IMG/VR virus record: IMGVR_UViG_2585428013_000006
DNA: 31,244 nt
From: a virus
Lineage: Duplodnaviria; Heunggongvirae; Uroviricota; Caudoviricetes
Strand: one strand, 5' to 3'
Positions 1-28,840 of this stretch are shown in pieces. A program made the translations under genes and the position numbers. The notes under the pieces are model-generated. The model had not been told where the DNA came from. It searched no databases and saw only the letters and a list, made by a program, of their open reading frames with translations. Within the stretch, counting starts at the first letter, position 1; every line of letters starts with the position of its first letter.

Positions 1-648
1 ATGGAAACAATCATCACCGTTATCGCTGCTGTTGCTGGGATCGCTTTTTGGGTTGGGCTAATCAATCCCAAATGGGTTTTTATGCCAAATCGAAAGCGTT
101 CATCTGCTATCTACTTCGGGGTGTGCCTCTTGGCAGCAATCATAGGTTCAATGGTTGCACCAGTCGCGCCGAAAGCTGTTGCTGATAATAAGCCTCAACC
201 AGCAGTGACAACCACAGATCAAACACAACCTGCGGCTAAATCCAAAGAGCAATTAACAACCACTATCGACTTTTCAGAAGCGACCAATCAACTTCCCCCG
301 GCTTTATCTAAGGCGCTCGGTAAGTTGAACCTCACAGTTAAGCCCGTCATTTACAACAAAGCTTTAGTGGTTGCATTCAATTTTGACAGCATAGAAGAAT
401 TACAGGCGACAAGCGCCGTCCAGTCCGTATGTCTCAGCTACTTCAATCATGGGGAATCTAACAGGGCATGGAAGGCTAGTTTATTCGATCATATTTATGT
501 GACTAACGACATTTTAACCAAAGGCTACGTTTTTCAAGGTGGCGAATCTTCGTGTGATATCTGGGGCAAGAAGGCTGGGGATAGTGGCGATCAATATTTA
601 AGTGAAAACCTTACACGATCAAGGTTTGTAGCCATAAATATGAAATGA
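1..648 (+). CDS. Hypothetical membrane protein with two N-terminal hydrophobic helices; cargo or flanking host gene
   Basis: Complete ORF with ATG at position 1; hydrophobic segments IITVIAAVAGIAFWVGLI and IYFGVCLLAAIIGSMVAPVAP; visibly more AT-rich than the phage core; followed by a hairpin terminator. No family recognised. Confidence 0.45.
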   Translation: METIITVIAAVAGIAFWVGLINPKWVFMPNRKRSSAIYFGVCLLAAIIGSMVAPVAPKAVADNKPQPAVTTTDQTQPAAKSKEQLTTTIDFSEATNQLPPALSKALGKLNLTVKPVIYNKALVVAFNFDSIEELQATSAVQSVCLSYFNHGESNRAWKASLFDHIYVTNDILTKGYVFQGGESSCDIWGKKAGDSGDQYLSENLTRSRFVAINMK

Positions 649-652
649 ATAA

Positions 653-678
653 CGGCCCCATTTAGGGGCCGCTTTTAT
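653..678. terminator. Bidirectional rho-independent terminator shared by the left-edge ORF and ogr
   Basis: Hairpin CGGCCCC-ATTTA-GGGGCCG at 653-671 followed by CTTTTAT on the + strand; T-rich flank on the - strand as well. Confidence 0.6.
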
Positions 679-917
679 AATGCCAGCGACAACTGATCTT
701 CGCCGTGGTGACTTCGTGGAAAAGCTTCTTGTGGCACCATCGCGCCGGGCGCTGGCTGGGTCTGGTTTAGTGAACCGTCTATTTCCGTCATGCTGGTGAA
801 ACAGTACCCGCACAACATATTTTGACACTGGTGATAGCTGCGCCGTACAAGCAAACTCAGCTCAACGCTGGTTCTGGTTTTTGCTATTGCACGGCAGCGA
901 GGACAGCGCATTGCCAT
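675..917 (-). CDS. ogr: Ogr/Delta-type zinc-finger late transcription activator
   Basis: 80 aa, MAMRCPRCRA...RTS...YHQCQNMLCGYCF matches the Ogr C-x2-C...C-x4-C pattern; AAGGAGG 8 nt upstream of ATG at 917; sits next to D as in P2. Confidence 0.8.
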   Translation of the reverse strand: MAMRCPRCRAIAKTRTSVELSLLVRRSYHQCQNMLCGYCFTSMTEIDGSLNQTQPAPGAMVPQEAFPRSHHGEDQLSLAL

Positions 918-965
918 ACGCGGGCCTCCTTTCAGGACTGGTTAATATCAACGCAAGTATAACGC

Positions 966-2084
966 TTAAGACGTTGAATCGTCACTCTCCGCTGTCCAGT
1001 CGTCGATTTTTACTTCCAGTTCCAGCGACGTGGTAAACCCTCCCCCGCCAATATCGTGAACGCACCGCGTTATCGTCCAGTTCCCACTGTCGATCGTGGA
1101 CTTAAAGCCACAGACGCTGGCGGGCTGTTCCGGGTACAAATCTGTTCGGCCACGCGCCAGGGTGATGCTGAACGTCGCCGCTCCACGCTGCAACTCCCGC
1201 CACTTAGCCGCAGCGGCACGCTTTGCCGCCTTTTCCGTCTTGAAGGTTTTACGGATAACAAAAACGTTACCTTCTGCCCCGGCCAGATAATCCCCCTCTT
1301 TTTTGCTGGATGCAGGCTCTTTCTTTTTGGCCTGGCTGGTTCGGCGCCTGCGGGTTGTTTTCTTGACGGTAGTGGATGGTTTCTTGCCAAAGTTGAGATC
1401 AAGCCAGTATGCAGTTACGCCCGTGTACGCGTCGCGGTCAGCTACGTTAAAGCTATGTTTATCACCGCTTGACCGGACTATCTCGATCACCGGCAGCGGC
1501 TTGCCGCTCTGCGTCACTCCCTTGCCCGGCGTGATAAACAGAAGCATACCGTTTTTAATGGTTGCCACCGCGCCCAGCATTTCGGCCATGCGCGTTAAGA
1601 AGCTGATATCTGATTCACTCGTCTGATCGGCGTGGTCTATCTCAATCTTCGCCAGTTCTTCGCTGACGCCCGCACGCAGATCGTAGCGACTGGCAATGCT
1701 GGCGACCACATCCCCCACGGTAATATCGTGCCAGCTATATTCCCTCTTCACGTTGAAGGTATCGCGGAAATCCGCGCTTCTGGCACTGATCGTTAGCTGG
1801 TCAGGCGGGCCAGCGTGTCCGATCTCATCAACCGTATAGACGCCCTTAAAAACCAACGGATCATTATCCCAGCCCAGCGCCACCGATATCTTTGCACCGC
1901 GTGGTGGTAATGCTACCTGCCCGTCTGCATCATCCAGAGTCAGATCCAGCGTGTCCGCTTCAAAGCCCCGGTTATCAGTCAGGGAAAGAGAGATCAGCCG
2001 GTTATCCAGCGCCGTAAGCTGATTACCTTCAATTTCAATACTGAACGCCGGACGCGGCGAATATCGGTTTTCTGTCGTGTCCAT
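966..2084 (-). CDS. D: Tail protein D (phage late control D family)
   Basis: 372 aa; recognisable gpD-family sequence; ATG at 2084 with GAAGGGG upstream. Confidence 0.85.
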   Translation of the reverse strand: MDTTENRYSPRPAFSIEIEGNQLTALDNRLISLSLTDNRGFEADTLDLTLDDADGQVALPPRGAKISVALGWDNDPLVFKGVYTVDEIGHAGPPDQLTISARSADFRDTFNVKREYSWHDITVGDVVASIASRYDLRAGVSEELAKIEIDHADQTSESDISFLTRMAEMLGAVATIKNGMLLFITPGKGVTQSGKPLPVIEIVRSSGDKHSFNVADRDAYTGVTAYWLDLNFGKKPSTTVKKTTRRRRTSQAKKKEPASSKKEGDYLAGAEGNVFVIRKTFKTEKAAKRAAAAKWRELQRGAATFSITLARGRTDLYPEQPASVCGFKSTIDSGNWTITRCVHDIGGGGFTTSLELEVKIDDWTAESDDSTS

Positions 2085-2151
2085 ATCAACCCCTTCATCA
2101 TGATGGGGTACATCGTCGCCACGCGCGCGCGCATGAACAACGCCCCGTCAT

Positions 2152-2169
2152 TGTTGCAGGTTGCTGACA
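2152..2169. promoter_or_regulatory. TGT-N12-ACA dyad, candidate Ogr-dependent late promoter activator site (PF-like) in the D/FI divergent region
   Basis: TGTTGCAGGTTGCTGACA; centre about 81 bp upstream of the FI ATG and 76 bp upstream of the D ATG; (CG)5 tract at 2122-2132. Confidence 0.6.
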
Positions 2170-2241
2170 ACCCTTATTCATCGCATCGGCCTGCCATTGC
2201 CGCAATGATATTCGCAGTCATTAAACTGGCGAGGCAAATAC

Positions 2242-3435
2242 ATGGCCACTAACTACCATCGCGGTGTAACCGTCACGGAAACCACCGACCTTAGCACGAT
2301 GATCACCGACATTGATTCGGCGGTGATCGGTGTTGTCTGCACCGCTGATGATGCGGACGAAACAGCGTTCCCGCTGGATACCCCTGTACTGATCACCCGC
2401 GTGGCTAACATGCTGGGCAAGGCAGGTAAAACCGGCACCCTGTTTACCACCCTGAAAGCGATTTCAGACCAGACCAGCCCGCAAACCATTGTGATCCGCG
2501 TTGCTGATGCTGCAAATATCGAACCGCCAGAAGGCGGCACCGCTCCAACACAGGATCAACTGGTTATTGGCGGCACCGATGCAAACGGACGCTTTACCGG
2601 CATGTACGCGCTGCTGTCTGCCGAAATGCGCGTAGGCGTGCGCCCACGTGTGCTGGCTGTTCCCGGTCTTGATACGGAAGCGGTGGCCGCACAACTCGGC
2701 GTCATTGCCGAAAAGCTGCGCGCGTTTGCTTACGTGGCAGCGAACGGCTGCAACACCATCGCCGAAGTGAAGGAATACCGCGAACAGTTCTCCCAGCGTG
2801 AAATGATGGTTATCTGGCCTAATTTCATCTGCTACGACATCAACGCCGGGGCGAATGCTACCGTGCCCGTGGGTGCCCATGCGGTTGGGATGCGCGCCAA
2901 AATCGACGCAACGCAGGGCTGGCATAAAACCATTTCCAACGTGCCCGTTAATAACGTGCTGGGGATGGATCGGGATATCTATTTCACGTTGCAGGGCACC
3001 GATACCGACGCCGACGAACTGAACGCAGCAGGCGTTACCACGCTGATCAAGCAGGACGGCTACCGCATCTGGGGATCGCGTACCTGCGACGCAGAAACGT
3101 ATATCTTCGAAAGCTATACCCGAACCGCGCAGATCGTTGCGGATACCGTCGCCGAAGCCCATTTCGCCTATGTTGATAAACCGCTTACCCCGTCGCTGGT
3201 TAAGGACATTGTGGACGGCATCAATAAGAAGCTGACCTCATACGTGACGGCTGGCAAGCTGCTGGGCGCCCGCTGCTGGTATGACCCGGAACCGAATACC
3301 TCGGAAACCCTGCGCAATGGTCAACTGACCATTAAGTACAACTACACCCCTGTTCCACCGCTGGAAAATCTCAGCCTGGTACAGGAGTTTACCGACGAAT
3401 ATTTCGCTACGTTTTCCAGCGCAGTGAATAACTAA
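2242..3435 (+). CDS. FI: Contractile tail sheath protein FI
   Basis: 397 aa; strong resemblance to P2 FI throughout (e.g. GVPGLDT, KLRAF, NFSQRE.MVIWP, GWHKT.SNV, YTPVPPLENL); ATG at 2242. Confidence 0.95.
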   Translation: MATNYHRGVTVTETTDLSTMITDIDSAVIGVVCTADDADETAFPLDTPVLITRVANMLGKAGKTGTLFTTLKAISDQTSPQTIVIRVADAANIEPPEGGTAPTQDQLVIGGTDANGRFTGMYALLSAEMRVGVRPRVLAVPGLDTEAVAAQLGVIAEKLRAFAYVAANGCNTIAEVKEYREQFSQREMMVIWPNFICYDINAGANATVPVGAHAVGMRAKIDATQGWHKTISNVPVNNVLGMDRDIYFTLQGTDTDADELNAAGVTTLIKQDGYRIWGSRTCDAETYIFESYTRTAQIVADTVAEAHFAYVDKPLTPSLVKDIVDGINKKLTSYVTAGKLLGARCWYDPEPNTSETLRNGQLTIKYNYTPVPPLENLSLVQEFTDEYFATFSSAVNN

Positions 3436-3447
3436 CCGGGGGCGCTT

Positions 3448-3963
3448 ATGGCACTGCCTAAGAAACTTAAATATTTCAATATGTTTTTTGACGGTGATAA
3501 CTACTTCGGCATGGTGCCGGAAATTACCCCCGCCAAACTCACCAAAAAAACCGAAGACTACCAGGCGGGCGGTATGCCGGGTTCGGTTGCGGTGGATCTG
3601 GGCTTCGACGCTGGCGCCCTGGATATGGATATCACGCTTGGCGGTCTGGATGCCGGATTGCTTAAAAAATGGGGCGTTACCACTGCTGACGGGATGCAAA
3701 CACGTTTTGCTGGCTCCTATCAGGACGATGCGACCGGCGACGCTGTACCGTGCGAAATCCAGACGCGTGGCCGCTTCACTGAACTGGATCCCGGTTCGGC
3801 AAAAGTCGGGGATGACACTTCGCATAAGTACACCCTGAAAAACACCTATTACAAGCTGACCATCAACGGCGAAGAGATTATCGAAGTTGATGTGCTCAAC
3901 ATGATCTACAAAGTTGCCGGTGTGGATGTGCTGGAAAAACACCGCGCTAACATCGGCTTATAA
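3448..3963 (+). CDS. FII: Tail tube protein FII
   Basis: 171 aa, immediately after FI; size and position match P2 FII; ATG 3448 with G-rich RBS. Confidence 0.85.
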   Translation: MALPKKLKYFNMFFDGDNYFGMVPEITPAKLTKKTEDYQAGGMPGSVAVDLGFDAGALDMDITLGGLDAGLLKKWGVTTADGMQTRFAGSYQDDATGDAVPCEIQTRGRFTELDPGSAKVGDDTSHKYTLKNTYYKLTINGEEIIEVDVLNMIYKVAGVDVLEKHRANIGL

Positions 3964-3977
3964 GGAAACCCGGCACC

Positions 3978-4313
3978 ATGAGCAAGACCAAAGAAAACAC
4001 CGTTATTCTTACCGCCCCTATTACGCGCGGTAAGACCAAAATCACCGAGGTGGCGATCACTTCCGTGCTTAAACAGGCTGGATCACTGCGTGGTTTAAAA
4101 GCCTATGACGTGTTGACGTCCAACTATGACGCGCTGGTTATTCTTCTGCCCCGCGTTACCGCTCCGGCATTAACTGCCGATGAGATTGCCAGAATGGATA
4201 CCTGGGATTTTTGCCAGCTAGCCAACGCGGTGGTTGATTTTTTGCAACCCTCTTCGGATCTGAACGAGACGGATACGGGCAACGAATCATCCGATGCCCC
4301 TGCGAACGCATAG
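3978..4313 (+). CDS. E: Tail assembly chaperone E
   Basis: 111-aa ORF between the tube and tape-measure genes; AAGGAA RBS; contains slippery heptamer TTTTTTG at 4238-4244. Confidence 0.7.
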   Translation: MSKTKENTVILTAPITRGKTKITEVAITSVLKQAGSLRGLKAYDVLTSNYDALVILLPRVTAPALTADEIARMDTWDFCQLANAVVDFLQPSSDLNETDTGNESSDAPANA

Positions 4314-4438
4314 AAGACCTGATGGCAGATATCGCCGTCATATTCCACTGGCGGCCGGTAGAGATGGACGCCATGACGGTACAGGAAATACTGTTATGGC
4401 GTGATCAGGCGGCTGCGCGCAGTGGTGGAGATCACTAA
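3978..4438 (+). CDS. E+E' fusion product made by programmed -1 ribosomal frameshift at 4238-4244
   Basis: The -1 frame after T_TTT_TTG stays open for 65 codons and stops at TAA 4436-4438, immediately before the tape-measure ATG at 4439; matches the P2 E/E' arrangement. Confidence 0.55.
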
Positions 4439-7372
4439 ATGGCAGACCGCAATTTAAATATCAGGGTGGCATTCAGCGCCCTGAATAATATGTCCCGCCC
4501 TGTCAACGCGGCGCGCCAGAGTGCCGCCGCGTTGGCATCTCAAATCAATCAGACCAAAACCAGCATTAAAGGGCTTGAGCGTCAGGCAACCAGCTTTGAC
4601 CGCCTCACCGCAGCCAATAAAAAAACCACCGAACAACTGGCCCAGGCGAAAGAACAGGCCCGGCAAATGGCGGCGGCTTATGGCCCGTTACGCCAGCGTA
4701 GCGCCGAACAGGTTGCCGCTCTCAATCAGCAACGTGCAGCCATTCGCCAGTTAACCCAGCAGCAGAAAGGCGAGCAGACGCAGCTTAACCAGTTGCGCGC
4801 CAGCTTCTACAGCGAAGGCATTGCGATCAGCAGTGCCAGCCGGGCGACGGAACAGATCAACCAGCGCACCGCGCAATACAATCGCCAGCTTGCCGAACAG
4901 CAGCGACGGCTTGACGCTGTTAACCAGGCGCAGGCCCGTTACAGCCGCGCCAAAGAAACCGGCGAAAAGATGATGAGCGGGGGAATGAAAACCGCCGCAG
5001 TAGGGGCGGCAACCCTCGCACCTGTCGCCGCTGCGGTGAAATCCTACAGCAGCCTTGAAGACGCGATGAAGGGCGTAGCCAAACAGGTAAACGGCTTGCG
5101 TGACGACAGCGGCAACCGCACCCCGCAATATGAAGAAATGCAGCGGGCGATCATGGATGCCAGCGAAAAGCTGCCAATGGCTAACGGTGCTGTTGACTAT
5201 GCCGCCCTGGTCGAAGGCGGCGCGCGTATGGGCGTTGCAAACAGCGATGATCCGTGGGAAAAACAAAAAGCCGATCTGCTGGCTTTCGCCAGCATGGCGG
5301 CAAAAGCTTCGGTAGCCTTTGAACTGCCCGCCGATCAGCTTTCTGAAAGCCTGGGTAAAATTGCCGGGCTGTATAAAATCCCTACCCAGAATATTGAACA
5401 GTTGGGCGACGCCATAAACTACCTGGACGATAACGCGAAGTCGAAAGGCTCCGATATTATCGACGTGCTCCAGCGCGTTGGCGGGCTTGCCAGCCAACTG
5501 GATTACAAGCAAGCCGCCGCGCTGGGTTCCACCTTTCTGACGCTTGGATCACCTGCCGAAGTTGCCGCCAGCGCAACCAATGCAATGGTGCGCGAACTAT
5601 CGATTGCCACAGTACAAAGCGATAAATTTTTGGGTGCGCTGGATGAAATCGGCGTCAATGCTGAAAAAGTCCAGAAAAGCATGTCAGTGGACGCGATGGG
5701 CACGATTATTTCAGTGCTCGAAGCCTCTAAAAAACTTGCACCAGATAAGCAGGTAGCCAACCTTACCCAGATTTTCGGTAAAGAGTTCGGGGATGATGCG
5801 CAGAAACTTGCCAACAACCTGCCAGAACTGCGCCGCCAGATAGAACTGACGCAGGGCGCAGCCGCTAAAGGTTCCATGAACCGGGAATCTGATATTAATA
5901 AAGCTTCCCTTTCCGCTCAGTGGCAATTGACCAAAACCGGCGCGGTTAACGCATTCAGTTCAGCAGGGGAAACGCTCCGCGAACCGCTGATGGATATCAT
6001 GCTTACCGTCAGTAAGGTGATTGGCAGCGTCCGCCGCTGGGTTGAGGCAAACCCTGCGCTGGTTGGCTCAATCATGAAAGTCACCGCAGCCATAGGCGCG
6101 TTGCTGGTTGTCGTGGGTGGTCTGATGCTGTCTATCGGCGCAGTGCTGGGCCCGATGGCGCTTGTTCGCCTCAGCTTCACCACGCTGGCCGGGGAAGGAG
6201 GAATAGCACGGCTGACTGGCGGAGTAATGCGCCTGGGTGGTGCGTTCCAGTGGCTTGCTGGCTCGCCTATGCAGGCATTATTAAGCGCCGGTCGCATGGT
6301 ATTCGGCCCGCTTATCACGCTACTGGCTGGCATTTCTGCGCCCGTATGGGGGCTGATTGCGCTCTTTGCGGCAGCAGCAGTGGCCGTCATTAAATTCTGG
6401 GAACCAATACAGGCATTTTTCACTGGTTTCTTTAACGGTATCATGACGGGCTTGCAACCTGTATTTGATGCTTTCAACGCTGTTTTCGCTCCATTAGCCC
6501 CAATCTTTGACGCGATAGGCTCCGCTATTAGCGGCGTTTGGGATTGGTTTACAAAATTGCTTGAACCGATCAAATTTTCCAGCGATGCGTTAGAAACTTG
6601 CACTACTGTTGGCGAAACATTTGGGAGGGTTCTGGGTACTGCAATAAGCGGTTTGCTTTGGCCGCTACAAAAATTGATGGAGGGTGTCGGCTGGGTACTG
6701 GAGAAACTTGATCTAATTCCTGCTGGGCTTGATGCAGCAAACGCCAAAGCAAATAGCCTTAAAAAAGATCCCGTTGTCTGGGAGTGGGATCCGCAACAAA
6801 AGAAAATGGTTAAAAAGGATTGGAACTGGTCGCCAGATAAACCAAACCAGCCTAAACCGCCAAAACCGCCAATAACACCTAAGCCAGTTGGTATCCCAGA
6901 CCTTATGGGATCGCCGAACTTAACCCCGAAGATGAGCAAGAGTCTGGATAAAATCGCAGACAACACGGGAAAAATGGCAGCAAAAGACGGGCCCGGCGAA
7001 ATCGTCTTCAAGAATAAGCAGCCTTATATCCCGATCCGGGGCGGATATTCGGAACCGCTTAAGCAGGCGCAGCGCCAGCTACCATCCCTTACGGATTGGG
7101 TGACGCAGCAGGCCGGATCTCTGATCGCTTCCGTTACGCCGTGGCAGGTTGAGAAGCCCGCCGCACGGGTGCCCGTTTCGGCGTCGCCGTCTGCGGCCTC
7201 CGTCGCTGCGCTGATGCCCGCGCCGGGTGGCGATGTATATAACCTTAGCTTCGACTTTAGCGGCCAGAAACTGGATGAAGAAACCATTATCAGGCGCGTG
7301 CGCGAAGAACTTGCGTTAGCGAAGCAGCAGGCCGACCGGCGCAAGCGCTCCCAACTGATCGATCACGTCTAA
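4439..7372 (+). CDS. T: Tail tape measure protein T
   Basis: 977 aa; coiled-coil Q/A-rich N-terminus, hydrophobic Gly/Ala-rich central region; located after E/E'. Confidence 0.9.
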   Translation: MADRNLNIRVAFSALNNMSRPVNAARQSAAALASQINQTKTSIKGLERQATSFDRLTAANKKTTEQLAQAKEQARQMAAAYGPLRQRSAEQVAALNQQRAAIRQLTQQQKGEQTQLNQLRASFYSEGIAISSASRATEQINQRTAQYNRQLAEQQRRLDAVNQAQARYSRAKETGEKMMSGGMKTAAVGAATLAPVAAAVKSYSSLEDAMKGVAKQVNGLRDDSGNRTPQYEEMQRAIMDASEKLPMANGAVDYAALVEGGARMGVANSDDPWEKQKADLLAFASMAAKASVAFELPADQLSESLGKIAGLYKIPTQNIEQLGDAINYLDDNAKSKGSDIIDVLQRVGGLASQLDYKQAAALGSTFLTLGSPAEVAASATNAMVRELSIATVQSDKFLGALDEIGVNAEKVQKSMSVDAMGTIISVLEASKKLAPDKQVANLTQIFGKEFGDDAQKLANNLPELRRQIELTQGAAAKGSMNRESDINKASLSAQWQLTKTGAVNAFSSAGETLREPLMDIMLTVSKVIGSVRRWVEANPALVGSIMKVTAAIGALLVVVGGLMLSIGAVLGPMALVRLSFTTLAGEGGIARLTGGVMRLGGAFQWLAGSPMQALLSAGRMVFGPLITLLAGISAPVWGLIALFAAAAVAVIKFWEPIQAFFTGFFNGIMTGLQPVFDAFNAVFAPLAPIFDAIGSAISGVWDWFTKLLEPIKFSSDALETCTTVGETFGRVLGTAISGLLWPLQKLMEGVGWVLEKLDLIPAGLDAANAKANSLKKDPVVWEWDPQQKKMVKKDWNWSPDKPNQPKPPKPPITPKPVGIPDLMGSPNLTPKMSKSLDKIADNTGKMAAKDGPGEIVFKNKQPYIPIRGGYSEPLKQAQRQLPSLTDWVTQQAGSLIASVTPWQVEKPAARVPVSASPSAASVAALMPAPGGDVYNLSFDFSGQKLDEETIIRRVREELALAKQQADRRKRSQLIDHV

Positions 7373-7382
7373 GGGCAATATC

Positions 7383-7832
7383 ATGATGATGATTCTGGGG
7401 ATGTTCCCCTTTTCACTGCAAACCACGCCTTACCAGAGTGCGAATAAAACCAACTCCTGGCGGCACGTCAAAAACGATCGCGTGGGGAAATCCCCGCGCT
7501 ATCAGTTCATCGGCGCAGATGAAGAACCTTTCGTACTTAGCGGCACGCTGTACCCCGAAATAAGTGGCGGTGATGTGTCGCTTGTCATGCTGGAAACTAT
7601 GGCCTTTTCCGGGCGACCGTGGCCCCTGATAGAAGGTACGGGCAGGATCTACGGCATGTATGTGATTGAGCAGATCACGCAAAACCGGACGGAGTTTTTT
7701 AAGGACGGGAAGGCAAAGAAAATTGATTTTACGCTGAACCTGAAACGGGTAAGCGAGGACATACGGGAAAAGCTGGCCGAAACTACCACCGACGATCTCT
7801 TCTCTCTGGTGAAAACCAACCTTTCGATATAA
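7383..7832 (+). CDS. U: Tail protein U
   Basis: 149 aa immediately after T; gpU-like size and position. Confidence 0.8.
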   Translation: MMMILGMFPFSLQTTPYQSANKTNSWRHVKNDRVGKSPRYQFIGADEEPFVLSGTLYPEISGGDVSLVMLETMAFSGRPWPLIEGTGRIYGMYVIEQITQNRTEFFKDGKAKKIDFTLNLKRVSEDIREKLAETTTDDLFSLVKTNLSI

Positions 7833-7836
7833 GAAA

Positions 7837-7855
7837 AGCGGGCCTTTGCCCGCTT
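7837..7855. terminator. Hairpin terminator in the convergent U/G intergenic region
   Basis: AGCGGGC-CTTTG-GCCCGCT; T-run on the minus-strand side (TTTTCTTAT), C/T-rich on the plus side. Confidence 0.5.
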
Positions 7856-7881
7856 CCCCTCCTTGCGGCACTGCCATAACT

Positions 7882-7943
7882 GACCGTGCTGCAGCACCGT
7901 TAAAAATGACTGTACTCGATACGCACGGCCAGCACGGTTAGAA
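7882..7943. repeat. 62-bp intergenic repeat, copy 1; hairpin-capable; about 82 percent identical to 13913-13974
   Basis: Hand alignment: CCGTGCTG[C/G]AGCAC...AAAAATGAC...ATACGCACGGCCAGCAC[G/A]GTTA shared by both copies; terminal arms CCGTGCTG and CAGCACGG are reverse complements. Confidence 0.7.
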
Positions 7944-7969
7944 CCGGCCATGCGTGCCGGAATGAAAAC

Positions 7970-11102: not shown

Positions 11103-11461
11103 GCCTGGCCCCTCAATGTAATATCGGCGTTAAATGGCGTCTGATTATCGGTGCGGTTGGCCTGGATAGTGGCAACCAGCCGACCGGCACCCGGCGCGCT
11201 CAGGGTGATACTGGTCAGAGAGATCCGCGGTTCCCATAAATACAGGGCGCTGTAGATGGCAGACATAACGCGCAGCTTCGTTATGGCGTTATCGACCGGC
11301 TGATCTATCAGGTTGAAAAGCTGCGAACCGTAAGCGCGGCGCATTACACGGGAACCGATCGGCGTTAACAGAATATCGCCGATAGACTGCGCTATATGCT
11401 CGTTGTCGGTGATGGCATAGCCTGAACTGGCATTCATGCCGCTGTAACGGACTGTACTCAT
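11099..11461 (-). CDS. W: Baseplate protein W
   Basis: 120 aa; overlaps the V stop; position. Confidence 0.8.
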   Translation of the reverse strand: MSTVRYSGMNASSGYAITDNEHIAQSIGDILLTPIGSRVMRRAYGSQLFNLIDQPVDNAITKLRVMSAIYSALYLWEPRISLTSITLSAPGAGRLVATIQANRTDNQTPFNADITLRGQA

Positions 11462-12087
11462 ACCGGGCCACCTGTATTACTACCACCGGACTGAACGCCG
11501 CTATGTTTGTGCGAATGGACAACGACACCATTAGACGAAAGCGATCCGCCTGAATGAGTAATATTGCCCTTCATTTCCCCGCCGTTTTGTACTTCCAGCG
11601 TGGCGGTGATCAGCTTGTTGGTGCAGACCACTTCCGGCGTGTCCAGGGTAACGCGCGTATCTGCCTTGACCGTTACCACCGGCACGGTGGCGGTAATGGA
11701 TTCCGACGCGGTGACGCTTGCCGTTTTCACCCCGCTGACAACCAGCGCGCTGGCCTCCGGGTCATATGAGATACGGGCGCCATCCGGGTGCAGGATCACG
11801 CAGGTGGTAGCGCCAGCATCTGGCGGCGGTGCGTCTTCGCTGTAAAGGCTTCCGGCAATGAATGCCGTTTCCATCTCACCGCAGGGGCACAAAATATAAA
11901 CCTGTTCGCCCACTGTCGGCGCCCACCACGTCACGGCTTCACCGGCGCGCGGCACTGCCCAGCGGATCCAGTCGGTTTTGTTCTCGCCTGTTTCGACGCG
12001 CGCAAGGTACTTTTCCGTATCCACTTCCAGCACGGTGCCAATGCGGGCGAGATTGCAGATAAGGCGATAGAGTTCGTTTAAATTCAT
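11458..12087 (-). CDS. V: Baseplate spike/assembly protein V
   Basis: 209 aa; first gene of the V-W-J-I-H-G block; ATG 12087. Confidence 0.8.
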   Translation of the reverse strand: MNLNELYRLICNLARIGTVLEVDTEKYLARVETGENKTDWIRWAVPRAGEAVTWWAPTVGEQVYILCPCGEMETAFIAGSLYSEDAPPPDAGATTCVILHPDGARISYDPEASALVVSGVKTASVTASESITATVPVVTVKADTRVTLDTPEVVCTNKLITATLEVQNGGEMKGNITHSGGSLSSNGVVVHSHKHSGVQSGGSNTGGPV

Positions 12088-12225
12088 AGTGCTGACTGTT
12101 TCCCGTGGTGCCGGTTACGCTGTCCGGCGTCGCTTCCACCCGGTAGCAGGCTTTACGACCGTTTCGGCTTTTGGGTTATGCAGTCAGTATCAGGAGTCGC
12201 GCGCGCGCAAACAACGCGGCGCCAT

Positions 12226-12243
12226 TGTGGCGGGTTGGTGACA
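12226..12243. promoter_or_regulatory. TGT-N12-ACA dyad, candidate late promoter (PV-like) between S and V
   Basis: TGTGGCGGGTTGGTGACA; CGCGCGCGCGC tract at 12198-12208 lies between the dyad and V. Confidence 0.55.
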
Positions 12244-17517: not shown

Positions 17518-18363
17518 TCAGCAATCAGCAAGCTGGGCGTTAGATTTTTCAGTTGCGCCGGTCGCTTCCGGACGGCGGTATTTGCTGGCGTCCTGGGTAG
17601 AAAGCTGCGCTTTCATCTCGTCGAACTCAGAGCGCAACTTCTCCACCGCTTCGGCGGTCTGCTTATTCTTAAGCTGCCCTGCGCTCAGTTTTTCCACCTT
17701 GTCCAGCAATTCACCCTGGCTTTCTGCTACCAGTTCAACCGCCTGGCGAATATCGCCATTTTCACGATCGAAGTGCTGGCGGGTTCCGGTCAGCATTTCC
17801 TTGATACGGGAAAAGAAATTCTTCCCGGTGTCGGACGCTGGCGGCTCTTCCTGCGCAAATTCGAGGGATGATTCCAGGGTTTCAGTGAAGAAGCATTCAG
17901 GTGCGTAGTGACGCGCGGCCAGTGGGTTGGCGCTGGCGTTCTGGGTGCAAAACTTCATCATTTCGGTGCCCAGGCTTGCCGGGTTATCGGTACAGGCCAG
18001 CCCCATAAGGTAGGCTTTGCCGGTGTCGGCAAAAGACGGATGCACCTCAATGCTATGGTAGATTTTCTGGCGTTTCTTCTTCAGTTCGACCAGTTCATCC
18101 GTGGCGTCCACCTTCACCAGAAGCGCCAACTTGCCCTTTAACGGGCCTTCGGCAATCTCTTCGGTTTTAGTCTCGACCACATCACCATACGCGCGGAAAT
18201 CGCTTGTCGGCGACCAGCCTAAAATGTGCTCCAGATTGACGCGGGCACCATAGACCTGGGGATCGTACTGTTCGGCCATTTCGGTGATGTGCTGACGTTC
18301 CAGTACTCGGCCGTCACAGGTTGCGCCCTCTACTGCGGCGCGGAAAAAATTTGTCATTGGCAT
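17518..18363 (-). CDS. O: Capsid scaffolding protein O
   Basis: 281 aa from ATG 18363 (MPMTNFFRAAVEG, GGAG upstream); resembles P2 gpO (DGRV, NLEH, GLA.TD.PASLGTE); the 440-aa track ORF is an N-terminal over-extension. Confidence 0.9.
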   Translation of the reverse strand: MPMTNFFRAAVEGATCDGRVLERQHITEMAEQYDPQVYGARVNLEHILGWSPTSDFRAYGDVVETKTEEIAEGPLKGKLALLVKVDATDELVELKKKRQKIYHSIEVHPSFADTGKAYLMGLACTDNPASLGTEMMKFCTQNASANPLAARHYAPECFFTETLESSLEFAQEEPPASDTGKNFFSRIKEMLTGTRQHFDRENGDIRQAVELVAESQGELLDKVEKLSAGQLKNKQTAEAVEKLRSEFDEMKAQLSTQDASKYRRPEATGATEKSNAQLADC

Positions 18364-18452
18364 GGTGACAAAGCTCCGGGTTGGTAAGCGATTGATATTA
18401 ACCAGTGCCCTAATCATTCCCTTTGCAGCCGGAAGGCGCAAAGCCTTCACTT

Positions 18453-18470
18453 TGTCGGACTCAGGCGACA
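18453..18470. promoter_or_regulatory. TGT-N12-ACA dyad, candidate late promoter activator site in the divergent O/P region
   Basis: TGTCGGACTCAGGCGACA; GCGCGCGCG tract at 18489-18497; the only such dyad in the 153-bp divergent region. Confidence 0.55.
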
Positions 18471-18516
18471 ACCAGCGGCGATATTGTTGCGCGCGCGAGC
18501 GCGATAGCCTGTTGCC

Positions 18517-20229
18517 ATGAATACAGCCGAAGACCTCAGCACAAAAGCCAAAAGCCTCTACTGGCAGGCGTTTAGCATCACTCAGATTTCTAAGGAAATC
18601 GGGGTGAGCATTAACACGATCTACAGTTGGCGCCGCCGCTATGAATGGGATAAAGCCACCCCCATGCAGCGGGTGCAGGATCGCACGCACGTTCGTTACT
18701 TGCGCCTGGTGGAAAAGGACGACAAAACCCCGAAGGACTTCAAAGAAATTGACCTGCTGGCGCGCCAGCTTGACCGCTTCGAACGGCATGAACGACGCGA
18801 CCAGGAGAAAGAGAAGAAGGCGAAGACCCCGAAAAACCATTTCACCGAAGAACAGATAACCCAGCTTCGCGCCCTGGTCTTTGATTCGCTATACGAGCAT
18901 CAAAAACGCTGGTTCAAACAGTGGAACCGGCGTAACCGCTTTATCCTCAAATCGCGCCAGATTGGTGCCACCTGGTACTTTGCCCGCGAAGCGCTGTTGC
19001 GTGCGCTGGAAACCGGAAATAATCAGATATTCCTGTCAGCCAGCCGCGCCCAGGCGTTCCAGTTCAAGCGGTTCATTCAGAAGCTGGCACAGGAAATCGG
19101 TGTAGAACTCAAAGGCGGCGACGCCATCGTATTGAGCAACGGCGCAACGCTGTACTTTCTCGGCACCTCTGCCGCGACGGCACAGAGCTACACCGGCGAT
19201 CTGTACATGGATGAAGCCTTCTGGATCAGCAACTTCATCAACCTGCGTAAAGTCGCCGCAGGCATGGCGACCCACAAAGGACTACGCCGCACCTACTTTT
19301 CGACACCTTCCAGTGAAGAACATGAAGCCTATCCCTTCTGGACTGGCGATCAGTTCAATAAGCACCGTTCACGGGCCGATCGGGTGGATATCGACACCAG
19401 TTATAAGACGCTCAAAAACGGCAAGCTGGGCGGGGATAACATCTGGCGCCAGATAGTCACGCTGGAAGACGCCGTGAAGCTCGGCTTCGATCTGGTTGAT
19501 ACCGATGAAATCCGTAACGAAAACTCCCCCGACGAATACGCCAACCTTTACGGCTGCATGTTCGTTAAAGCCGGAGAACGCGCCTTCGACTACAACGCAA
19601 TTCTGGGCTGCGGCGTTGATGGCTACATGCCGGACGCATGGCCGGACTGGAACCCGTTTGCACCCCGCCCGCTGGGTAATCGCCCTGTCTGGGTTAGCTA
19701 TGACCCCAACGGCAGCAGCGGCAAAGGCGACAGCGCCGGGCTGGTTGTGCTGGCCCCGCCAGCCGTGCCGGGTGGTAAGTTCCGCGCGGTTGAACGCCAC
19801 CAGTTACGCGGCATGGAGTACGAAGAGCAGGCCAAATTTATTAAAGAGATCACCACCCGCTACAACGTGCAGCACATTGCTATCGACGGCACGGGGATTG
19901 GCGATGCGGTTTATCAACTGGTGATCAAGTTCTTCCCGCAGGCGGTTAAATACAACTATTCACCGGTTCTTAAGCGGTCGATGGTGCTCAAAATGTTGAT
20001 GGTCATTCGTGCCGGGCGCTTTGAGTTCGATGCCGGAATGATGGATCTCGCCCAGTCGTTTATGACCGTGCGTAAAGTCACCGCAGGCGGCGTTATTACC
20101 TACCAGTCCGATCGGGCCCGTGGCAGCAATCACGGCGATCTGGCATGGGCAACGATGCAGGGCATTTACAACGAACCGATCGGCGCGGAAGTGACCGGCG
20201 ATAACGGCAGTTTTGTGGAGGAGTTTTAA
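18517..20229 (+). CDS. P: Terminase ATPase (large) subunit P
   Basis: 570 aa; divergent from O and followed by the portal gene, as in P2; ATG at 18517. Confidence 0.85.
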   Translation: MNTAEDLSTKAKSLYWQAFSITQISKEIGVSINTIYSWRRRYEWDKATPMQRVQDRTHVRYLRLVEKDDKTPKDFKEIDLLARQLDRFERHERRDQEKEKKAKTPKNHFTEEQITQLRALVFDSLYEHQKRWFKQWNRRNRFILKSRQIGATWYFAREALLRALETGNNQIFLSASRAQAFQFKRFIQKLAQEIGVELKGGDAIVLSNGATLYFLGTSAATAQSYTGDLYMDEAFWISNFINLRKVAAGMATHKGLRRTYFSTPSSEEHEAYPFWTGDQFNKHRSRADRVDIDTSYKTLKNGKLGGDNIWRQIVTLEDAVKLGFDLVDTDEIRNENSPDEYANLYGCMFVKAGERAFDYNAILGCGVDGYMPDAWPDWNPFAPRPLGNRPVWVSYDPNGSSGKGDSAGLVVLAPPAVPGGKFRAVERHQLRGMEYEEQAKFIKEITTRYNVQHIAIDGTGIGDAVYQLVIKFFPQAVKYNYSPVLKRSMVLKMLMVIRAGRFEFDAGMMDLAQSFMTVRKVTAGGVITYQSDRARGSNHGDLAWATMQGIYNEPIGAEVTGDNGSFVEEF

Positions 20230-21649: not shown

Positions 21650-21677
21650 AAGGGCTTTGTTAGCCCTTAATTTTTTA
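21650..21677. terminator. Bidirectional hairpin terminator ending the accessory operon
   Basis: AAGGGCT-TTGTT-AGCCCTT flanked by A-run and T-run. Confidence 0.65.
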
Positions 21678-22313
21678 CCTTCCCCACTCCCGATCAGGAA
21701 GTCGATCTTTGAAGGCAAGGTAATCGTAAAACTCACGAGTATGGGAAAAGATACATTCGCACATTGCAGCGCCAGCGTTTGAAAGAGCCAATTTCAACAT
21801 GCCGTCAGGTTTAGGATTGCTCACCAAATTTTCATAAACTTGAGCCTGATCTGTACCGTGGACACATAACAAAAGTGACGACTCAAAGGTAACAACTGCA
21901 TCCAGTAAACGCTGATGAATCACGGAAAGGGCCGGTTGGTTTGCAACAATTGCAGTCAAACAGCGGCGATCACCCGTCATGAAAATGGCTTCTGGGTTCT
22001 CTATGCACGAGGCAAGCAATAGCTGTTCGCCTACATCAATTCCGGGCACACTCCCCAAAAGCTCAATAAGCTGTGAGTCCTGAACTTCCGGGATATCCTG
22101 TACAGATTCAATGAAGGCTCCCACCTGCTCGTAAACAACCTGGCTACCACACTTCCTGATTGCTTTATCAGGATTTTTCGGCAGAAGCTGAAAACGAGCA
22201 GCAGGGTTAATGAAGATCTGTTCGGGGGGTTGATTAAAAACCACTGGCAGTTGTGATAACAGATTGCACTGGGCCAGCTTCAAAATGACATCATTGTCAG
22301 AAAGAACAATCAC
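21675..22313 (-). CDS. Hypothetical protein, possible PIN-like nuclease fold; second gene of the accessory pair
   Basis: 212 aa; GTG start after tandem TAA TAA; N-terminal IVLSDNDVI and later IFMTGDRR resemble PIN acidic motifs (weak, by eye); AT-richer than the phage core. Confidence 0.45.
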   Translation of the reverse strand: MIVLSDNDVILKLAQCNLLSQLPVVFNQPPEQIFINPAARFQLLPKNPDKAIRKCGSQVVYEQVGAFIESVQDIPEVQDSQLIELLGSVPGIDVGEQLLLASCIENPEAIFMTGDRRCLTAIVANQPALSVIHQRLLDAVVTFESSLLLCVHGTDQAQVYENLVSNPKPDGMLKLALSNAGAAMCECIFSHTREFYDYLAFKDRLPDREWGR

Positions 22314-22316
22314 TTA

Positions 22317-23473: not shown

Positions 23474-25828
23474 TTAGTTCCGCGAAAATGCTGCTTTCAT
23501 CCTGTTCACAAGATCACTTGTTTTTTGCTTCGCCGCCATCACCTGCGACGGTAGCTTATCCAGCCCGGACGCTGCGCGGTTGCGCGATACCAGCCGCCCG
23601 TCCTGCACGGTCATAACAAGATCGCCGCACGCCACTGACGCACCGGCCATCATCGATCTGACCATTCCAGCGCTGGCATCAATCCCACGTAGCGCCAGCA
23701 GTTCACTGATCTGCTGCTCTTTGACTGATAGCCCTGCTCCCTCTTCCCGTTCCGGTGGCCGCGTTTTCCGCTTGGCGCGTACATCGTCACTTAATCGCTG
23801 CGCCAGTTCCCGTTTTTCTTGCCGTGAAAGAGCATCAAAATTCACCGTCTCGCCCACTTCGTGATCGGCATGTTCAAGACCGTCTGCACTTGTCGCGGGA
23901 TCCCGCGTACAGTTATTGACAGAACTCCGAGGGGCGGCGTTGCCGCCTGAAAAACCAACGTCAACGGCCACACCGTCAACGCTCTGGCGCTTCGGCACGA
24001 TTTTGTATTGAGTGGTGCGGGTGAAGATCAAAGAGTCATTGCCCGTAATCGGGCAGTAAATACCGGTGATTCGCTGGACGTTATCGCCGTAGGCGTTGCC
24101 GTTCTCAGTGGTTTCATAATTCAGACGAATGCGCAGCTTATCGCGCTCAACCAATGGGCCACCCTGGGCTAATACGTAGTTATCCCATTCGCCACCGTTA
24201 GCGGCCTGCCGGGCGGTTTCCAGTTCAGGGTGTAGCACCAGTTCGCGATCGCCCAGGCGGCGAAGTTCGCGATATACCGTGACCGGCGCACCGCCGATCT
24301 GCTGAAACTGACGAATAGCCCAGCGCGATGCCCACGCGCTAACGCGGAGTGACATTTCTTTCAGGTCTTCCCCGGTTTCGTCGTCCTTCTCACCATCCAG
24401 CGCGAAGCCGTCGATATTCTTCGAAATGTATTTCGCTATGTAGCCGGTTGCGCTGCCGTGGGCATCGTCGATCGGCACAACCTGAAAGCGGTTTTCCTGC
24501 GCTCCCGGTTCGTTGCCGTCTTCTTTCAGGGCATATTTACGGAAGATTTCGCGCGCCTGCTTGACGCATTCCGGGCGCATAAAAAGAAGTAAATGCCAGT
24601 GTGGCGTTGCATCGTGGTGCGGTTCGACCACGCGGAAACCAAAGACGCGGATCCCTTTTCTCTTCCACGCTGCGCGGGTTCTCGCCCAGACTTTGCAAAG
24701 ATATTGCTGCGTCTCGCGCGGCGACGCGCCACAGTATTTATTATTGCGGCGCCCGTTATGCTGCATGGAGTGGTAACGGGAAGGTGCTGTTAGCGTGTAG
24801 AAGTCACCGGCCAGCCCTTCCAGCTTCGCCAAATCTTCAAATCCGCGCATTCTCGTCATGAGTTCGCGGCGACGGTTGGCCGGATTGGCAACACTACCGG
24901 CGACTTTATCGATCAGTGAAATGCGTTCGCCCGTGTCCTGGTCTTCCAGTTCCATAGCCTTAAGGTATTCACGGTTAGCCTTTTTCTGGGCCAGCCATTC
25001 CGTGAGGCACGGGGCGCTACTGTATGGGGAAGATTTTTTCTGGACGTATCCCGCTGCGATCATCAAATGCTCACGCCACCTGGCATGGATACGGCGCAGG
25101 CGGTTTAACCACCACTGCGGTGACTCAAGGCGAAGAACCGCGCGTAACGCGTCCTCCGCTTCCAGTTCTTCATTGCAATACGCCGTCCAGCCGGGGATCG
25201 GCGTTTTCAGATGCACCGCCAGCGACGCAATACGGCCATAGCCCGAAAGCGCCGCGAACTCAGGATCTCCGGTGCGTGCCAACTGGTGATCGGACTCGCG
25301 TATAAACTCGCTCGTAAAGATATCGGCAAGCGTATAAGCCAGTCTTTTTAACTCTTTCTTCCCTGCCCAGAGCATACGGAAAAGCTGATCGCGGATTGGT
25401 AGCAGAATGCCGGGCATCACAGTGTCAGGCTGGTAAACACTGTTCACGCTATCAATACGCGTTAATACGTGGCGCTCAAAGGTATTAACCAGCCAGTGAT
25501 CTGCCGCTTTACGGTCTTTCGCGTCCAGTGCATCCAGCTTCGCGGCAAAGTGGCGGCGGATATACTGCGGAAGGGAAGCCAGACGGCGACGCAGCAGCTT
25601 GCTGCGCTCCGGCTTTTCGTCCTCCGCTACCAGTTCACTGAACGCAATATGCTTGCGGGTGCCGTCCGGCGTGAGATAGTCGAAACCATCCAGCCCCGGC
25701 GCTACATCAACGCCAATCGGCTGGTATGGTTTGTTCCCGCCATAAGCGTAAGGGATAGCATTATCAGTGCTACCCGGATACGATGGAGGTGGAGAAGGGG
25801 CGCGACGGCCACGGGTTGCCGTGGTCAT
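23474..25828 (-). CDS. A: Replication initiation endonuclease A (rolling-circle)
   Basis: 784 aa; P2 gpA-like size and position; ATGA overlap with the upstream methylase gene. Confidence 0.9.
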   Translation of the reverse strand: MTTATRGRRAPSPPPSYPGSTDNAIPYAYGGNKPYQPIGVDVAPGLDGFDYLTPDGTRKHIAFSELVAEDEKPERSKLLRRRLASLPQYIRRHFAAKLDALDAKDRKAADHWLVNTFERHVLTRIDSVNSVYQPDTVMPGILLPIRDQLFRMLWAGKKELKRLAYTLADIFTSEFIRESDHQLARTGDPEFAALSGYGRIASLAVHLKTPIPGWTAYCNEELEAEDALRAVLRLESPQWWLNRLRRIHARWREHLMIAAGYVQKKSSPYSSAPCLTEWLAQKKANREYLKAMELEDQDTGERISLIDKVAGSVANPANRRRELMTRMRGFEDLAKLEGLAGDFYTLTAPSRYHSMQHNGRRNNKYCGASPRETQQYLCKVWARTRAAWKRKGIRVFGFRVVEPHHDATPHWHLLLFMRPECVKQAREIFRKYALKEDGNEPGAQENRFQVVPIDDAHGSATGYIAKYISKNIDGFALDGEKDDETGEDLKEMSLRVSAWASRWAIRQFQQIGGAPVTVYRELRRLGDRELVLHPELETARQAANGGEWDNYVLAQGGPLVERDKLRIRLNYETTENGNAYGDNVQRITGIYCPITGNDSLIFTRTTQYKIVPKRQSVDGVAVDVGFSGGNAAPRSSVNNCTRDPATSADGLEHADHEVGETVNFDALSRQEKRELAQRLSDDVRAKRKTRPPEREEGAGLSVKEQQISELLALRGIDASAGMVRSMMAGASVACGDLVMTVQDGRLVSRNRAASGLDKLPSQVMAAKQKTSDLVNRMKAAFSRN

Positions 25829-26739
25829 TGCGCGATCTCCATGTAGGCTTTTAAGAAAGTAGCGGCTGCATAGATATTTACGGCGTTTCCGCTGGCGCGT
25901 AGTTTTCCCACTCTGGAGGGAACCCCATCAACCAGAGGCTTAAGGCCGGGTTTAACTGGCCTCCACTTTCCATCCCGGCAGAAAAGCCAGTCAGCAGATC
26001 CCCAGAATCCGTTAACCGGGCCGGGCCTGCTATCTGCGCTGTCACATCCAGCGTATCCGTTGACAGCTTCCCGTGCCGCATCCTTCCCCCCTGATACCCG
26101 CCCTTTCCATCCCTCGCCGCAGGGGTGGGCCAGCCCGCAAGACAAGCAAAGTCCTGTAAGTTCGACTGCCGACCAGCCAGCTTCCTGGCGATCACCTTCT
26201 CGGCATCCTGATAAGCGTTCTTCGTATTGCTCGCGGTTGGAGTCGGCCAGCCAGTAAGTACGCTCCCGGATGTGCGGCGCACCGACGCCCGCAGACGGAA
26301 ACGCCGACGCCCCGAAGGCATAGCCCAAACTTTCCATGTCAGTTTGTACAAGGTCGATCCAGACTTCTGCATCTTTGCTTGAAGACTGTTCGCCAAATAT
26401 AACGACAGGGCGTTGCTGGCCTGCAAGCCAATGAACGGCGGGCCATAGGTGCCGCTCATCATCAAATTGTTTTCCTTCGCCTGCCTGGCTGAAAGGTTGG
26501 CATGGGCAACTTGCTGTCCATACTGGGCGGTCGTCCGGCCATCCTGCAACGCGCAAAGCACGGGGCCAGCCTCCAAAACCTGCAAACAGGTGGATTTGAG
26601 AGAATCCTTTAATGTCATTTGGGGTTACATCCTCAACGGAACGGGTATCAACAACGCCGGAAGCGATAAGCCCGGCATCAATGAGGTTGCGCAGGTATTG
26701 CGCGGCAAAGGGATCGATTTCGTTGTAGTAGGCGGTCAC
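25825..26739 (-). CDS. DNA (cytosine-5) methyltransferase, orphan
   Basis: Motif I FAGFGG, motif IV PCQPFS, RER, C-terminal GNAV; GTG start with GGAGGGG SD; no restriction partner seen. Confidence 0.8.
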
Positions 26740-26930
26740 TGCTGCCCCTCCGCTTTGCGGTATTTCGTGATAAGCGGATCTACAATTCCGTCGAGAGTGG
26801 CCTTTATCGCCCGCGCCTCTTCCTGCCCATTCATCACGCCCACGTGCGTGGCTAACGCCAACGCTATCAACTTGATTTCGTTCAGTGCGTGCAGCGCGCC
26901 TTGATTAAATTCATGTGAGTTAGAAGGCAT
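26736..26930 (-). CDS. Hypothetical small protein
   Basis: 64 aa from ATG 26930 (GGAG RBS), packed between the Dam and C5-methylase genes. Confidence 0.4.
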   Translation of the reverse strand: MPSNSHEFNQGALHALNEIKLIALALATHVGVMNGQEEARAIKATLDGIVDPLITKYRKAEGQQ

Positions 26931-28129: not shown

Positions 28130-28312
28130 TTACTGGTGATCCGCTGATTGGTTAGCTGACTTGAGGGCAGGCCAGACAAGGAGAAGAAGAGCGCCAACGA
28201 AGAAGGCGTCGCCAATCACCGAAAGCAGGTAGCTGGTGAAATCCACTGCTACGACCATGAAGGCCAACAGCAGGGCCAGCGCCGGACGTAGTGAATCCAG
28301 CACGCGCAGCAT
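28130..28312 (-). CDS. Small membrane protein with two predicted helices, co-translated with the TerB-like gene
   Basis: 60 aa, mostly hydrophobic; ATGA overlap with the upstream stop; hairpin at 28105-28126 downstream. Confidence 0.45.
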   Translation of the reverse strand: MLRVLDSLRPALALLLAFMVVAVDFTSYLLSVIGDAFFVGALLLLVWPALKSANQSADHQ

Positions 28313-28746: not shown

Positions 28747-28840
28747 GCTATTTATCCTTTTTAGGATGAGTGAAAGCGCCATCACTTAATTAAGTGACGA
28801 CAGTGAAGACTGTTTTTTAATTAATATTTAACTGGCGTTG

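Follow-up and report, generated by a model that had tools for sequence, protein, structure and literature searches.

In phage P2 (NC_001895), one annotated activator site (3057-3087) serves the divergent late promoters pO and pP, whose starts (3127 and 3016) lie 111 bp apart and 55-56 bp from the centre of the site. In phage 186 (NC_001317), a single site for the B protein (3798-3817) is annotated for both of the divergent promoters pV and p12, whose features end 112 bp apart. The use of one activator site for divergent late promoters is thus already annotated in both phages, and for Smp131 a site shared in this way has been assumed (PMC3931495). P2 has this architecture at O/P only and carries D as the last gene of its FI operon, whereas the locus described here appears to have a second such pair between D and FI; in 186, too, D lies within the sheath operon, unlike in our locus.

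The locus is part of a 31,244-nucleotide stretch of DNA (IMG/VR record IMGVR_UViG_2585428013_000006), all of which was analyzed and which we call the window. Judged by its sequence, the window is a P2-like Salmonella prophage, a Senquatrovirus-like relative of P2. The closest deposited phages are the Salmonella phages SEN4 and SEN5 (genus Senquatrovirus), with 93% DNA identity over 673-7962, and among genomes a Salmonella enterica chromosome comes closest, with an FI that is 99% identical. Pfam matches were obtained for Ogr, gpD, sheath, tube, gpU, gpV, gpS, gpO and terminase, and the genes that matter here are the following:

675..917, minus strand: ogr homologue (Ogr/Delta zinc-finger activator), downstream of D (PF04606, E = 1.5e-13).
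966..2084, minus strand: gene D (baseplate hub), first in the D-ward unit (PF05954).
2242..7832, plus strand: FI-FII-E-T-U tail operon, inverted relative to P2 (Pfam sheath, tube and gpU).
2242-3435, plus strand: tail sheath FI (Pfam).
Within the FI-U operon, plus strand: tube FII (Pfam).
7383-7832, plus strand: gpU (Pfam).
12087..11458, minus strand: gpV (Pfam; gpS was also matched).
18363..17518, minus strand: scaffold gpO (Pfam).
18517-20229, plus strand: terminase gpP (Pfam).

Because the FI-FII-E-T-U block is inverted relative to P2, D (and then ogr) and FI point away from each other, with a spacer of 157 bp (2085-2241) between them. This divergence was found in all 80 IMG/VR loci retrieved with gpD, with D identities from 99% to 65%, and also in SEN5, Escherichia phage PhiR44_2 and Klebsiella phage ST16-OXA48phi5.4. 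The window's Ogr homologue is 30% identical to P2 Ogr. A promoter scan assigned ogr a sigma-70-like promoter of its own at 985..956, and a terminator scan predicted the nearby hairpin at 651-673 to be a terminator on both strands; a 215-aa ORF (1-648, plus strand) that converges on ogr shares this hairpin and has no match in Pfam or NCBIfam. The other accessory regions are on the minus strand, at 21675-23315 and 28312-28785. In the first, a protein with an IrrE/ImmA-type metallopeptidase domain (22317-23315, minus strand) comes after a 212-aa protein without a family match, and a TerB-domain protein is also found among the accessory genes. In the SEN5 record (KT630646.2), a 39-aa CDS at 3008-3127, on the strand opposite the Pfam-supported ogr, is named "late control protein ogr", and a 50-aa hypothetical CDS (4428-4580) is annotated over the spacer with the D/FI promoters; both are apparently artefacts of annotation.

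The D/FI spacer holds exactly one dyad of the Ogr type. Its features, and those of the two other late-promoter regions of the window, are listed here, with offsets counted from the edges of the dyad:

2152-2169, no strand: Ogr-type activator dyad TGT-N12-ACA, TGTTGCAGGTTGCTGACA, an exact match.
2135..2140, minus strand: -35-like hexamer TTGTTC of the D-ward promoter (at +12 to +14, the two Ts are 100% and 89% and the G 76% conserved).
2120..2135, minus strand: 16-base alternating purine/pyrimidine tract in the D-ward spacer (CACGCGCGCGCGCATG on the plus strand; CG core 2122-2132).
2112..2117, minus strand: predicted -10-like hexamer GACGAT of the D-ward promoter (+35 to +40).
2105, minus strand: predicted D-ward start (+47, which puts the dyad centre at -55.5; the D ATG at 2084 follows a 21-base leader).
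2204..2209, plus strand: AATGAT, the predicted FI-ward -10-like hexamer (+35 to +40, counted from the opposite edge of the dyad).
2216, plus strand: FI-ward start predicted from the geometry (26-base leader to the FI ATG at 2242).
12179..12243, minus strand: promoter PV (dyad 12226-12243, TTGTTT 12214..12209, CG tract 12198-12208, GATACT 12191..12186, predicted start 12179).
18406..18517, no strand: divergent O-ward and P-ward promoters (PO/PP) on one dyad, 18453-18470.
18418..18413, minus strand: AATGAT of the O-ward promoter, with a start predicted at 18406 from the dyad geometry.
18488-18497 and 18505-18510, plus strand: CG tract and TAGCCT of the P-ward promoter, with a start predicted at 18517 from the dyad geometry.

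A preliminary description of the window had reported the dyad together with a CG tract about 33 bp away on its D side. Both sequences are in place, TGTTGCAGGTTGCTGACA at 2152-2169 and CGCGCGCGCGC at 2122-2132 on the D side, and the distance is 33.5 bp from centre to centre. The further claim that the pair recurs at the other two late regions with near-identical spacing also holds (12198-12243 and 18453-18497; 33.5, 31.5 and 31.5 bp, centre to centre, for the three pairs). Its assignment to the P2 type of late-promoter element is consistent with the Ogr homologue encoded in the window and with the exact dyads that precede D/FI, V and O/P (at 2152, 12226 and 18453). An extended form, TTGT-N10-ACAA, spans 2151-2170, and its TTGT and ACAA are invariant in all five promoters of the window.

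By itself, TGT-N12-ACA is not enriched in the window (6 matches versus 5.3 expected); three of these six lie in late intergenic DNA (three regions, 1.5% of the window in total; binomial P = 6e-5). Three distinct sites (2122-2169, 12198-12243 and 18453-18497) fit the composite pattern CGCGCGCG-N12-26-TGT-N12-ACA, versus 0.02 expected in shuffles; with overlapping matches included there are five raw matches, a number reached in none of 100 shuffles. Among the distinct D/FI spacers of relatives, 62 of 66 contain one exact dyad, one contains two and three contain a one-mismatch version only. In relatives whose D proteins range from 99% down to about 66% identity, the inner 12 bases have diverged but TGT and ACA have not, and TGT and ACA are conserved at the V and O/P dyads of relatives too. 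As a universal marker, exact TGT-N12-ACA had to be rejected, since it is absent at the late promoters of P2, 186, PhiR44_2 and ST16-OXA48phi5.4; the late sites of P2 are imperfect, and none of its exact matches lies at a late promoter.

Several other candidates were considered in these regions. A terminator-like hairpin at 2159-2172 was dismissed: its 5-bp stem lies inside the dyad, and nothing transcribes into 2159-2172. Known RNA families were not found in 1900-2450. Allowing one mismatch brought up no second dyad in the O/P spacer (18364-18516). A TGT-N13-ACA at 18353-18371 (TGTCATTGGCATGGTGACA) overlaps both codons at which gene O may start (18363 and 18357) and is probably due to chance.

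For the start predictions, the geometry was calibrated on the annotated P2 starts (pP 3016, pO 3127, pV 10308) and on the promoter features of 186, both taken from the feature tables of the RefSeq records, and conservation was read from a gap-free, dyad-anchored alignment of distinct relatives (39 for the D side and 40 for the FI side). On the D side, A at +36 and A at +39 are conserved in 100% and T at +40 in 92%; on the FI side, each of the three is conserved in 100%. These mirror-image columns are the most conserved flanking columns in the alignment, and conservation of TT(G) at +12 to +14 is restricted to the D side. With a start at +47, the conserved columns equal -11A, -8A, -7T and -35TTG. 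The hexamers of the two core promoters match the consensus at 3-4 of 6 positions (GACGAT on the D side matches TATAAT at 3 of 6). The predicted D-ward and FI-ward starts are 111 bp apart, as are those of the O/P pair, and each is 55.5 bp from the centre of the dyad, compared with 55-56 bp in P2. Conserved -10-like columns on both sides, together with the same 111-bp spacing of starts as in P2, make it most likely that the single dyad at 2152-2169 would fire both D-ward and FI-ward. The suggestion in the preliminary description that the dyad may serve both genes is thereby strengthened: the A, A and T of the -10-like hexamer are 92-100% conserved at equal distance on both sides. Its companion statement, that the direction of firing could not be settled, no longer stands in full, with service to both genes favored and the CG tract assigned to the D-ward core promoter (see below). 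Three dyads would then serve five late units, two of the dyads bidirectionally.

Matching elements are found at the other late regions. TTGTTT and GATACT of PV occupy the offsets of the D-ward TTGTTC and GACGAT, and, read towards V, PV consists of the dyad, 11 bases, TTGTTT, a 17-base spacer starting GCGCGCGCGCG, and GATACT, an architecture conserved in relatives with V identities down to about 57%. The AATGAT of PO is at the same offset as the FI-ward AATGAT. P2 pP has TAGCCT as its -10, 7 bases ahead of the annotated start, and the P-ward promoter of the window has an identical TAGCCT at the predicted offset. Applied to SEN8 and to a Proteus-associated clade, the +47 rule falls on or beside the V start codon, which agrees with the annotation of P2, where the pV start is on the V ATG.

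The predicted P-ward start (18517) is also the A of the terminase (P) start codon, the region 18503-18519 lacks a Shine-Dalgarno sequence, and 12 bases before the start codon there is an in-frame stop, so P is probably translated from a leaderless mRNA. P likewise starts on the predicted transcript start in SEN8 and in several IMG/VR clades. P2 has a 23-base leader at pP, but a leaderless start is annotated at its pV. The 5′ end of the predicted D leader (2085-2108, minus strand) can form a hairpin, ACCCC..GGGGU, with -9.5 kcal/mol for a 36-base leader segment; a different but equivalent stem (CCCUCA..UGAGGG) is found in the clade of L024 and L035, and none in more distant clades. The 5′ arm of this hairpin begins 2-3 bases upstream of the predicted start, and either the start lies slightly further upstream or the repeat acts in DNA. 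In PhiR44_2 (L205, 20319-21532) and ST16-OXA48phi5.4 (L206, 21198-22417), V overlaps the end of S and there is no separate PV, so late transcription would come from O/P and D/FI only; in both phages these two regions each sit between divergent late genes. Their activator site is a GTTC(T/G)C..GACAACAAAA-type motif, not TGT-N12-ACA.

On the D strand the alternating tract reads CATGCGCGCGCGCGTG and extends from about -30 to -15 in the predicted D-ward promoter, whose spacer between TTGTTC and GACGAT is 17 bp. The D/FI copy aligns with PV in one orientation (TTGTTC, then atGCGCGCGCGCGtggc, then GACGAT), and at PV and PP the CG tract stands between the dyad and the gene; the tract at D/FI is therefore part of the D-ward core promoter. 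Rather than being a separate element, the (CG)5 run forms the core of this -35/-10 spacer tract, and in the sequences compared the conserved property is the alternation of purines and pyrimidines over 12-16 bases, not only (CG)5. Column-wise purine/pyrimidine purity is blurred by register shifts of one to two bases between clades, so run lengths and within-clade variants were used. The counts, which include related sequences and are not independent events, are as follows (runs are alternating purine/pyrimidine; strict CG means alternating CG of at least 8 bases):

D-ward promoters: runs of 12 bases or more in 34 of 45 distinct promoters; strict CG in 29 of 59.
V-ward promoters: runs of 12 bases or more in 12 of 25 distinct promoters; strict CG in 20 of 33.
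P-ward promoters: runs of 10 bases in 4 of 6 distinct promoters; strict CG in 4 of 6.
FI-ward promoters: no long runs (longest 8 bases); strict CG in 0 of 70 distinct promoters.
O-ward promoters: no long runs (longest 5 bases); strict CG in 0 of 8 distinct promoters.
Shuffled spacers (null): runs of 12 bases or more in 0.5%.

A run of 12-16 bases starting at +17 to +19 from the dyad edge is kept in 6 of 8 D/FI clades, and in one clade the CG core is broken by transitions only (TACGCGCACGCGTGCG). A wider O/P sample (P identity 56-71%, further clades) has alternating CG directly upstream of the P-ward -10. PhiR44_2 and ST16-OXA48phi5.4 also have alternating CG near their late promoters, upstream of the P-ward -10, despite their different activator site. 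Alternating runs of 8 bases or more are absent from the late promoters of P2, 186 and SEN8; in P2 no spacer has an alternating CG run of that length, and pP has only cgcggggcgcg. In the distant relatives L092 and L165-L172 (Rhodocyclales, Sphingomonas and others), GCGCGCGC runs lie between a TGT..ACA-type inverted repeat and the V start; these are GC-rich hosts with a high background GC.

The tract-bearing promoters drive the D hub and ogr, the V baseplate genes, and the P/Q terminase and portal, and their partners drive sheath and tube (FI) or scaffold and capsid (O). From the composition of the P2 virion, the hub, baseplate, and terminase and portal proteins are expected in few copies per virion. 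There are exceptions to this low-copy-side rule: a short CGCGCG stands on the FI side in the clade of L066-L080 and in PhiR44_2, and one P-clade has alternating runs of 8-10 bases O-ward. That a spacer tract may act through promoter strength and supercoiling is general promoter knowledge. Most likely, the tract makes the D-, V- and P-ward promoters intrinsically weaker, or more reliant on activator or on negative supercoiling. The activity of synthetic E. coli promoters becomes dependent on negative supercoiling when their spacers are GC-rich (Klein et al. 2021, PMC8695583). We infer that this spacer effect, combined with the presence of the tract on the promoters of low-copy operons, favors such a tuning role.

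A more specific reading makes the tract a structural switch, which would flip towards Z-DNA or another non-B form in the spacer under negative supercoiling and so gate the weaker promoter of each pair; we regard this as unlikely. The 16 bp at 2120-2135 form a candidate Z-DNA sequence (a CG-rich alternating run of about 12 bp or more). What is conserved over 12-16 bp is the alternation rather than CG as such, as in the clade that keeps TACGCGCACGCGTGCG; two of the three window tracts stand between divergent promoters, and divergent transcription or replication could raise negative supercoiling locally. Within clades, tract variants are biased to transitions (18 transitions to 4 transversions, versus 52 to 42 in control columns; Fisher P = 0.03), but this bias is weak and could reflect CpG mutation bias, and PV has the tract but no divergent partner. 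For a B-to-Z transition that is stable under physiological superhelicity, moreover, a stretch of 10-16 bp of alternating CG is short; with a tract of this length, a true B/Z-type switch is possible but less likely than the tuning role. A broader version, in which the D-, V- and P-ward tract is a supercoil-responsive element (a B/Z-type switch or a strongly twist-dependent spacer) that sets the output of the low-copy operons relative to the strong sheath and capsid promoters on the same activator site, also seems improbable to us; if it were true, a single concentration of activator would give fixed, topology-tuned expression ratios.

The one-sided tract also bears on whether the dyad might activate the CG-marked D-ward promoter only, with FI relying on another, unrecognised promoter or on a different mechanism. 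The D-ward side does have the full PV-like set (TTGTTC, CG spacer and -10) at equal offsets, and the FI side has neither TTG at -35 nor the tract. However, a search that allowed one mismatch or N11 or N13 spacing gave no second dyad in the spacer, and a consensus scan found there no consensus-like sigma-70 promoter serving D or FI, which fits activator dependence. The sole sigma-70 match in the spacer was rejected as a promoter: it agrees at 9 of 12 positions, which is the level of chance, and lies on the minus strand, overlapping the FI-side hexamer. That AATGAT reads TATCAT on the other strand, and the hexamer alone gives no direction. Against D-only activation we also count the full conservation of the FI-side A, A and T in 40 distinct relatives, the same AATGAT at an equal offset in PO, a predicted FI leader that matches that of P2 pF, and the precedent of one site for two promoters in P2 and 186. 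We therefore consider it quite unlikely that the dyad serves D only.

It is very doubtful that the tract is functionless, a piece of inherited promoter sequence that was copied, in a GC-rich context, from one late promoter to another through duplication or gene conversion. The D-ward promoter and PV of the window are alike beyond the tract, suggesting common descent. However, in 6 of 8 clades the tract keeps its offset although flanks and dyad interior have diverged, and it is kept in the P-ward promoters of clades with only 56-71% P identity; the FI-ward and O-ward spacers of the same genomes are without it, and runs of this length are rare in the shuffled spacers.

Finally, it is highly improbable that the CG tract is a protein target, be it of the phage C5-cytosine methyltransferase (26739..25825) or of a second activator or host factor, for although genes for a C5-methylase-like protein (Pfam PF00145, partial match) and a Dam-type methylase are present in the window, and P4 delta reportedly has a second site near -18 at Psid, PhiR44_2 and ST16-OXA48phi5.4 have CG tracts but no methylase homologue, the methylase allele varies in the window's clade (98-99% versus 53-57% identity) while the tracts are unchanged, and the tract of the D-ward promoter contains no TGT-N12-ACA-like second site. 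On the first two of these counts, a coupling of the tract to the C5-cytosine methylase was rejected. The matches of this enzyme to M.HhaI in the PDB span the catalytic motifs only and are silent on specificity. It is encoded in the early region (25825-26739, minus strand) as a divergent protein whose partial PF00145 match goes with a score below the NCBIfam cut-off; its gene adjoins that of a Dam-family adenine methylase (26920-27873, minus strand), and the differing alleles within one phage clade mark it as variable cargo.

Taken as a whole, a shared Ogr-family dyad that drives both D and FI, with the CG tract as a tuning spacer of the D-ward promoter, is in our judgment the likely arrangement. 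The prophage's own Ogr-family zinc-finger activator would bind the 18-bp dyad at 2152-2169, and the one bound site would serve two back-to-back late promoters at once: a leftward promoter, starting at about 2105, for D and then ogr, and a rightward promoter, starting at about 2216, for FI-FII-E-T-U, each predicted start being about 55.5 bp from the dyad centre. The arrangement may have originated when the FI-U block was inverted together with its promoter dyad, which would have placed a symmetric site beside D.

Such an origin would mean that a symmetric activator site moved beside another gene by rearrangement could simply be reused, and the proposed arrangement would give an account of D expression and ogr feedback in P2-like phages with an inverted tail block. 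The one-sided CG spacer may explain how unequal amounts of high-copy and low-copy virion proteins are obtained with one activator. The practical value is modest, namely better annotation of late promoters in Peduoviridae prophages, and the promoters may offer synthetic biology a natural activator-dependent set with graded spacers.

Promoters are not mentioned in the SEN4/SEN5 paper, and the searchable literature, which does not include the original P2/P4 promoter papers, ties no Z-DNA or CG tracts to Ogr promoters; an alternating CG spacer on one side of shared activator sites is apparently undescribed for P2-type late promoters. The pV/p12 pair of 186 differs from the pairs of the window in its activator (B, not Ogr) and in having no CG tract, the p12 spacer being AT-containing. 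The closest counterparts of the FI-ward promoter are P2 pF and 186 pJ, which drive the same sheath-operon genes; all three have AAT-type -10s (AAATAC, AATAAC and AATGAT) and leaders of about 25 bases (in P2, 25 bases from the pF start at 17626-17628 to the FI ATG at 17652; in the window, 26). pF and pJ are unidirectional and also express D, with ogr or B by read-through, whereas the operon in the window stops at U. As in the D-ward promoter, the synthetic promoters of Klein et al. (2021, PMC8695583) have a GC-rich 17-bp spacer between -35 and -10, but they are constitutive, whereas the tract described here is strictly alternating, conserved, and found in predicted activator-dependent promoters. 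Relative to the pairs annotated in P2 and 186, what is new in the window is the second shared pair, at D/FI.
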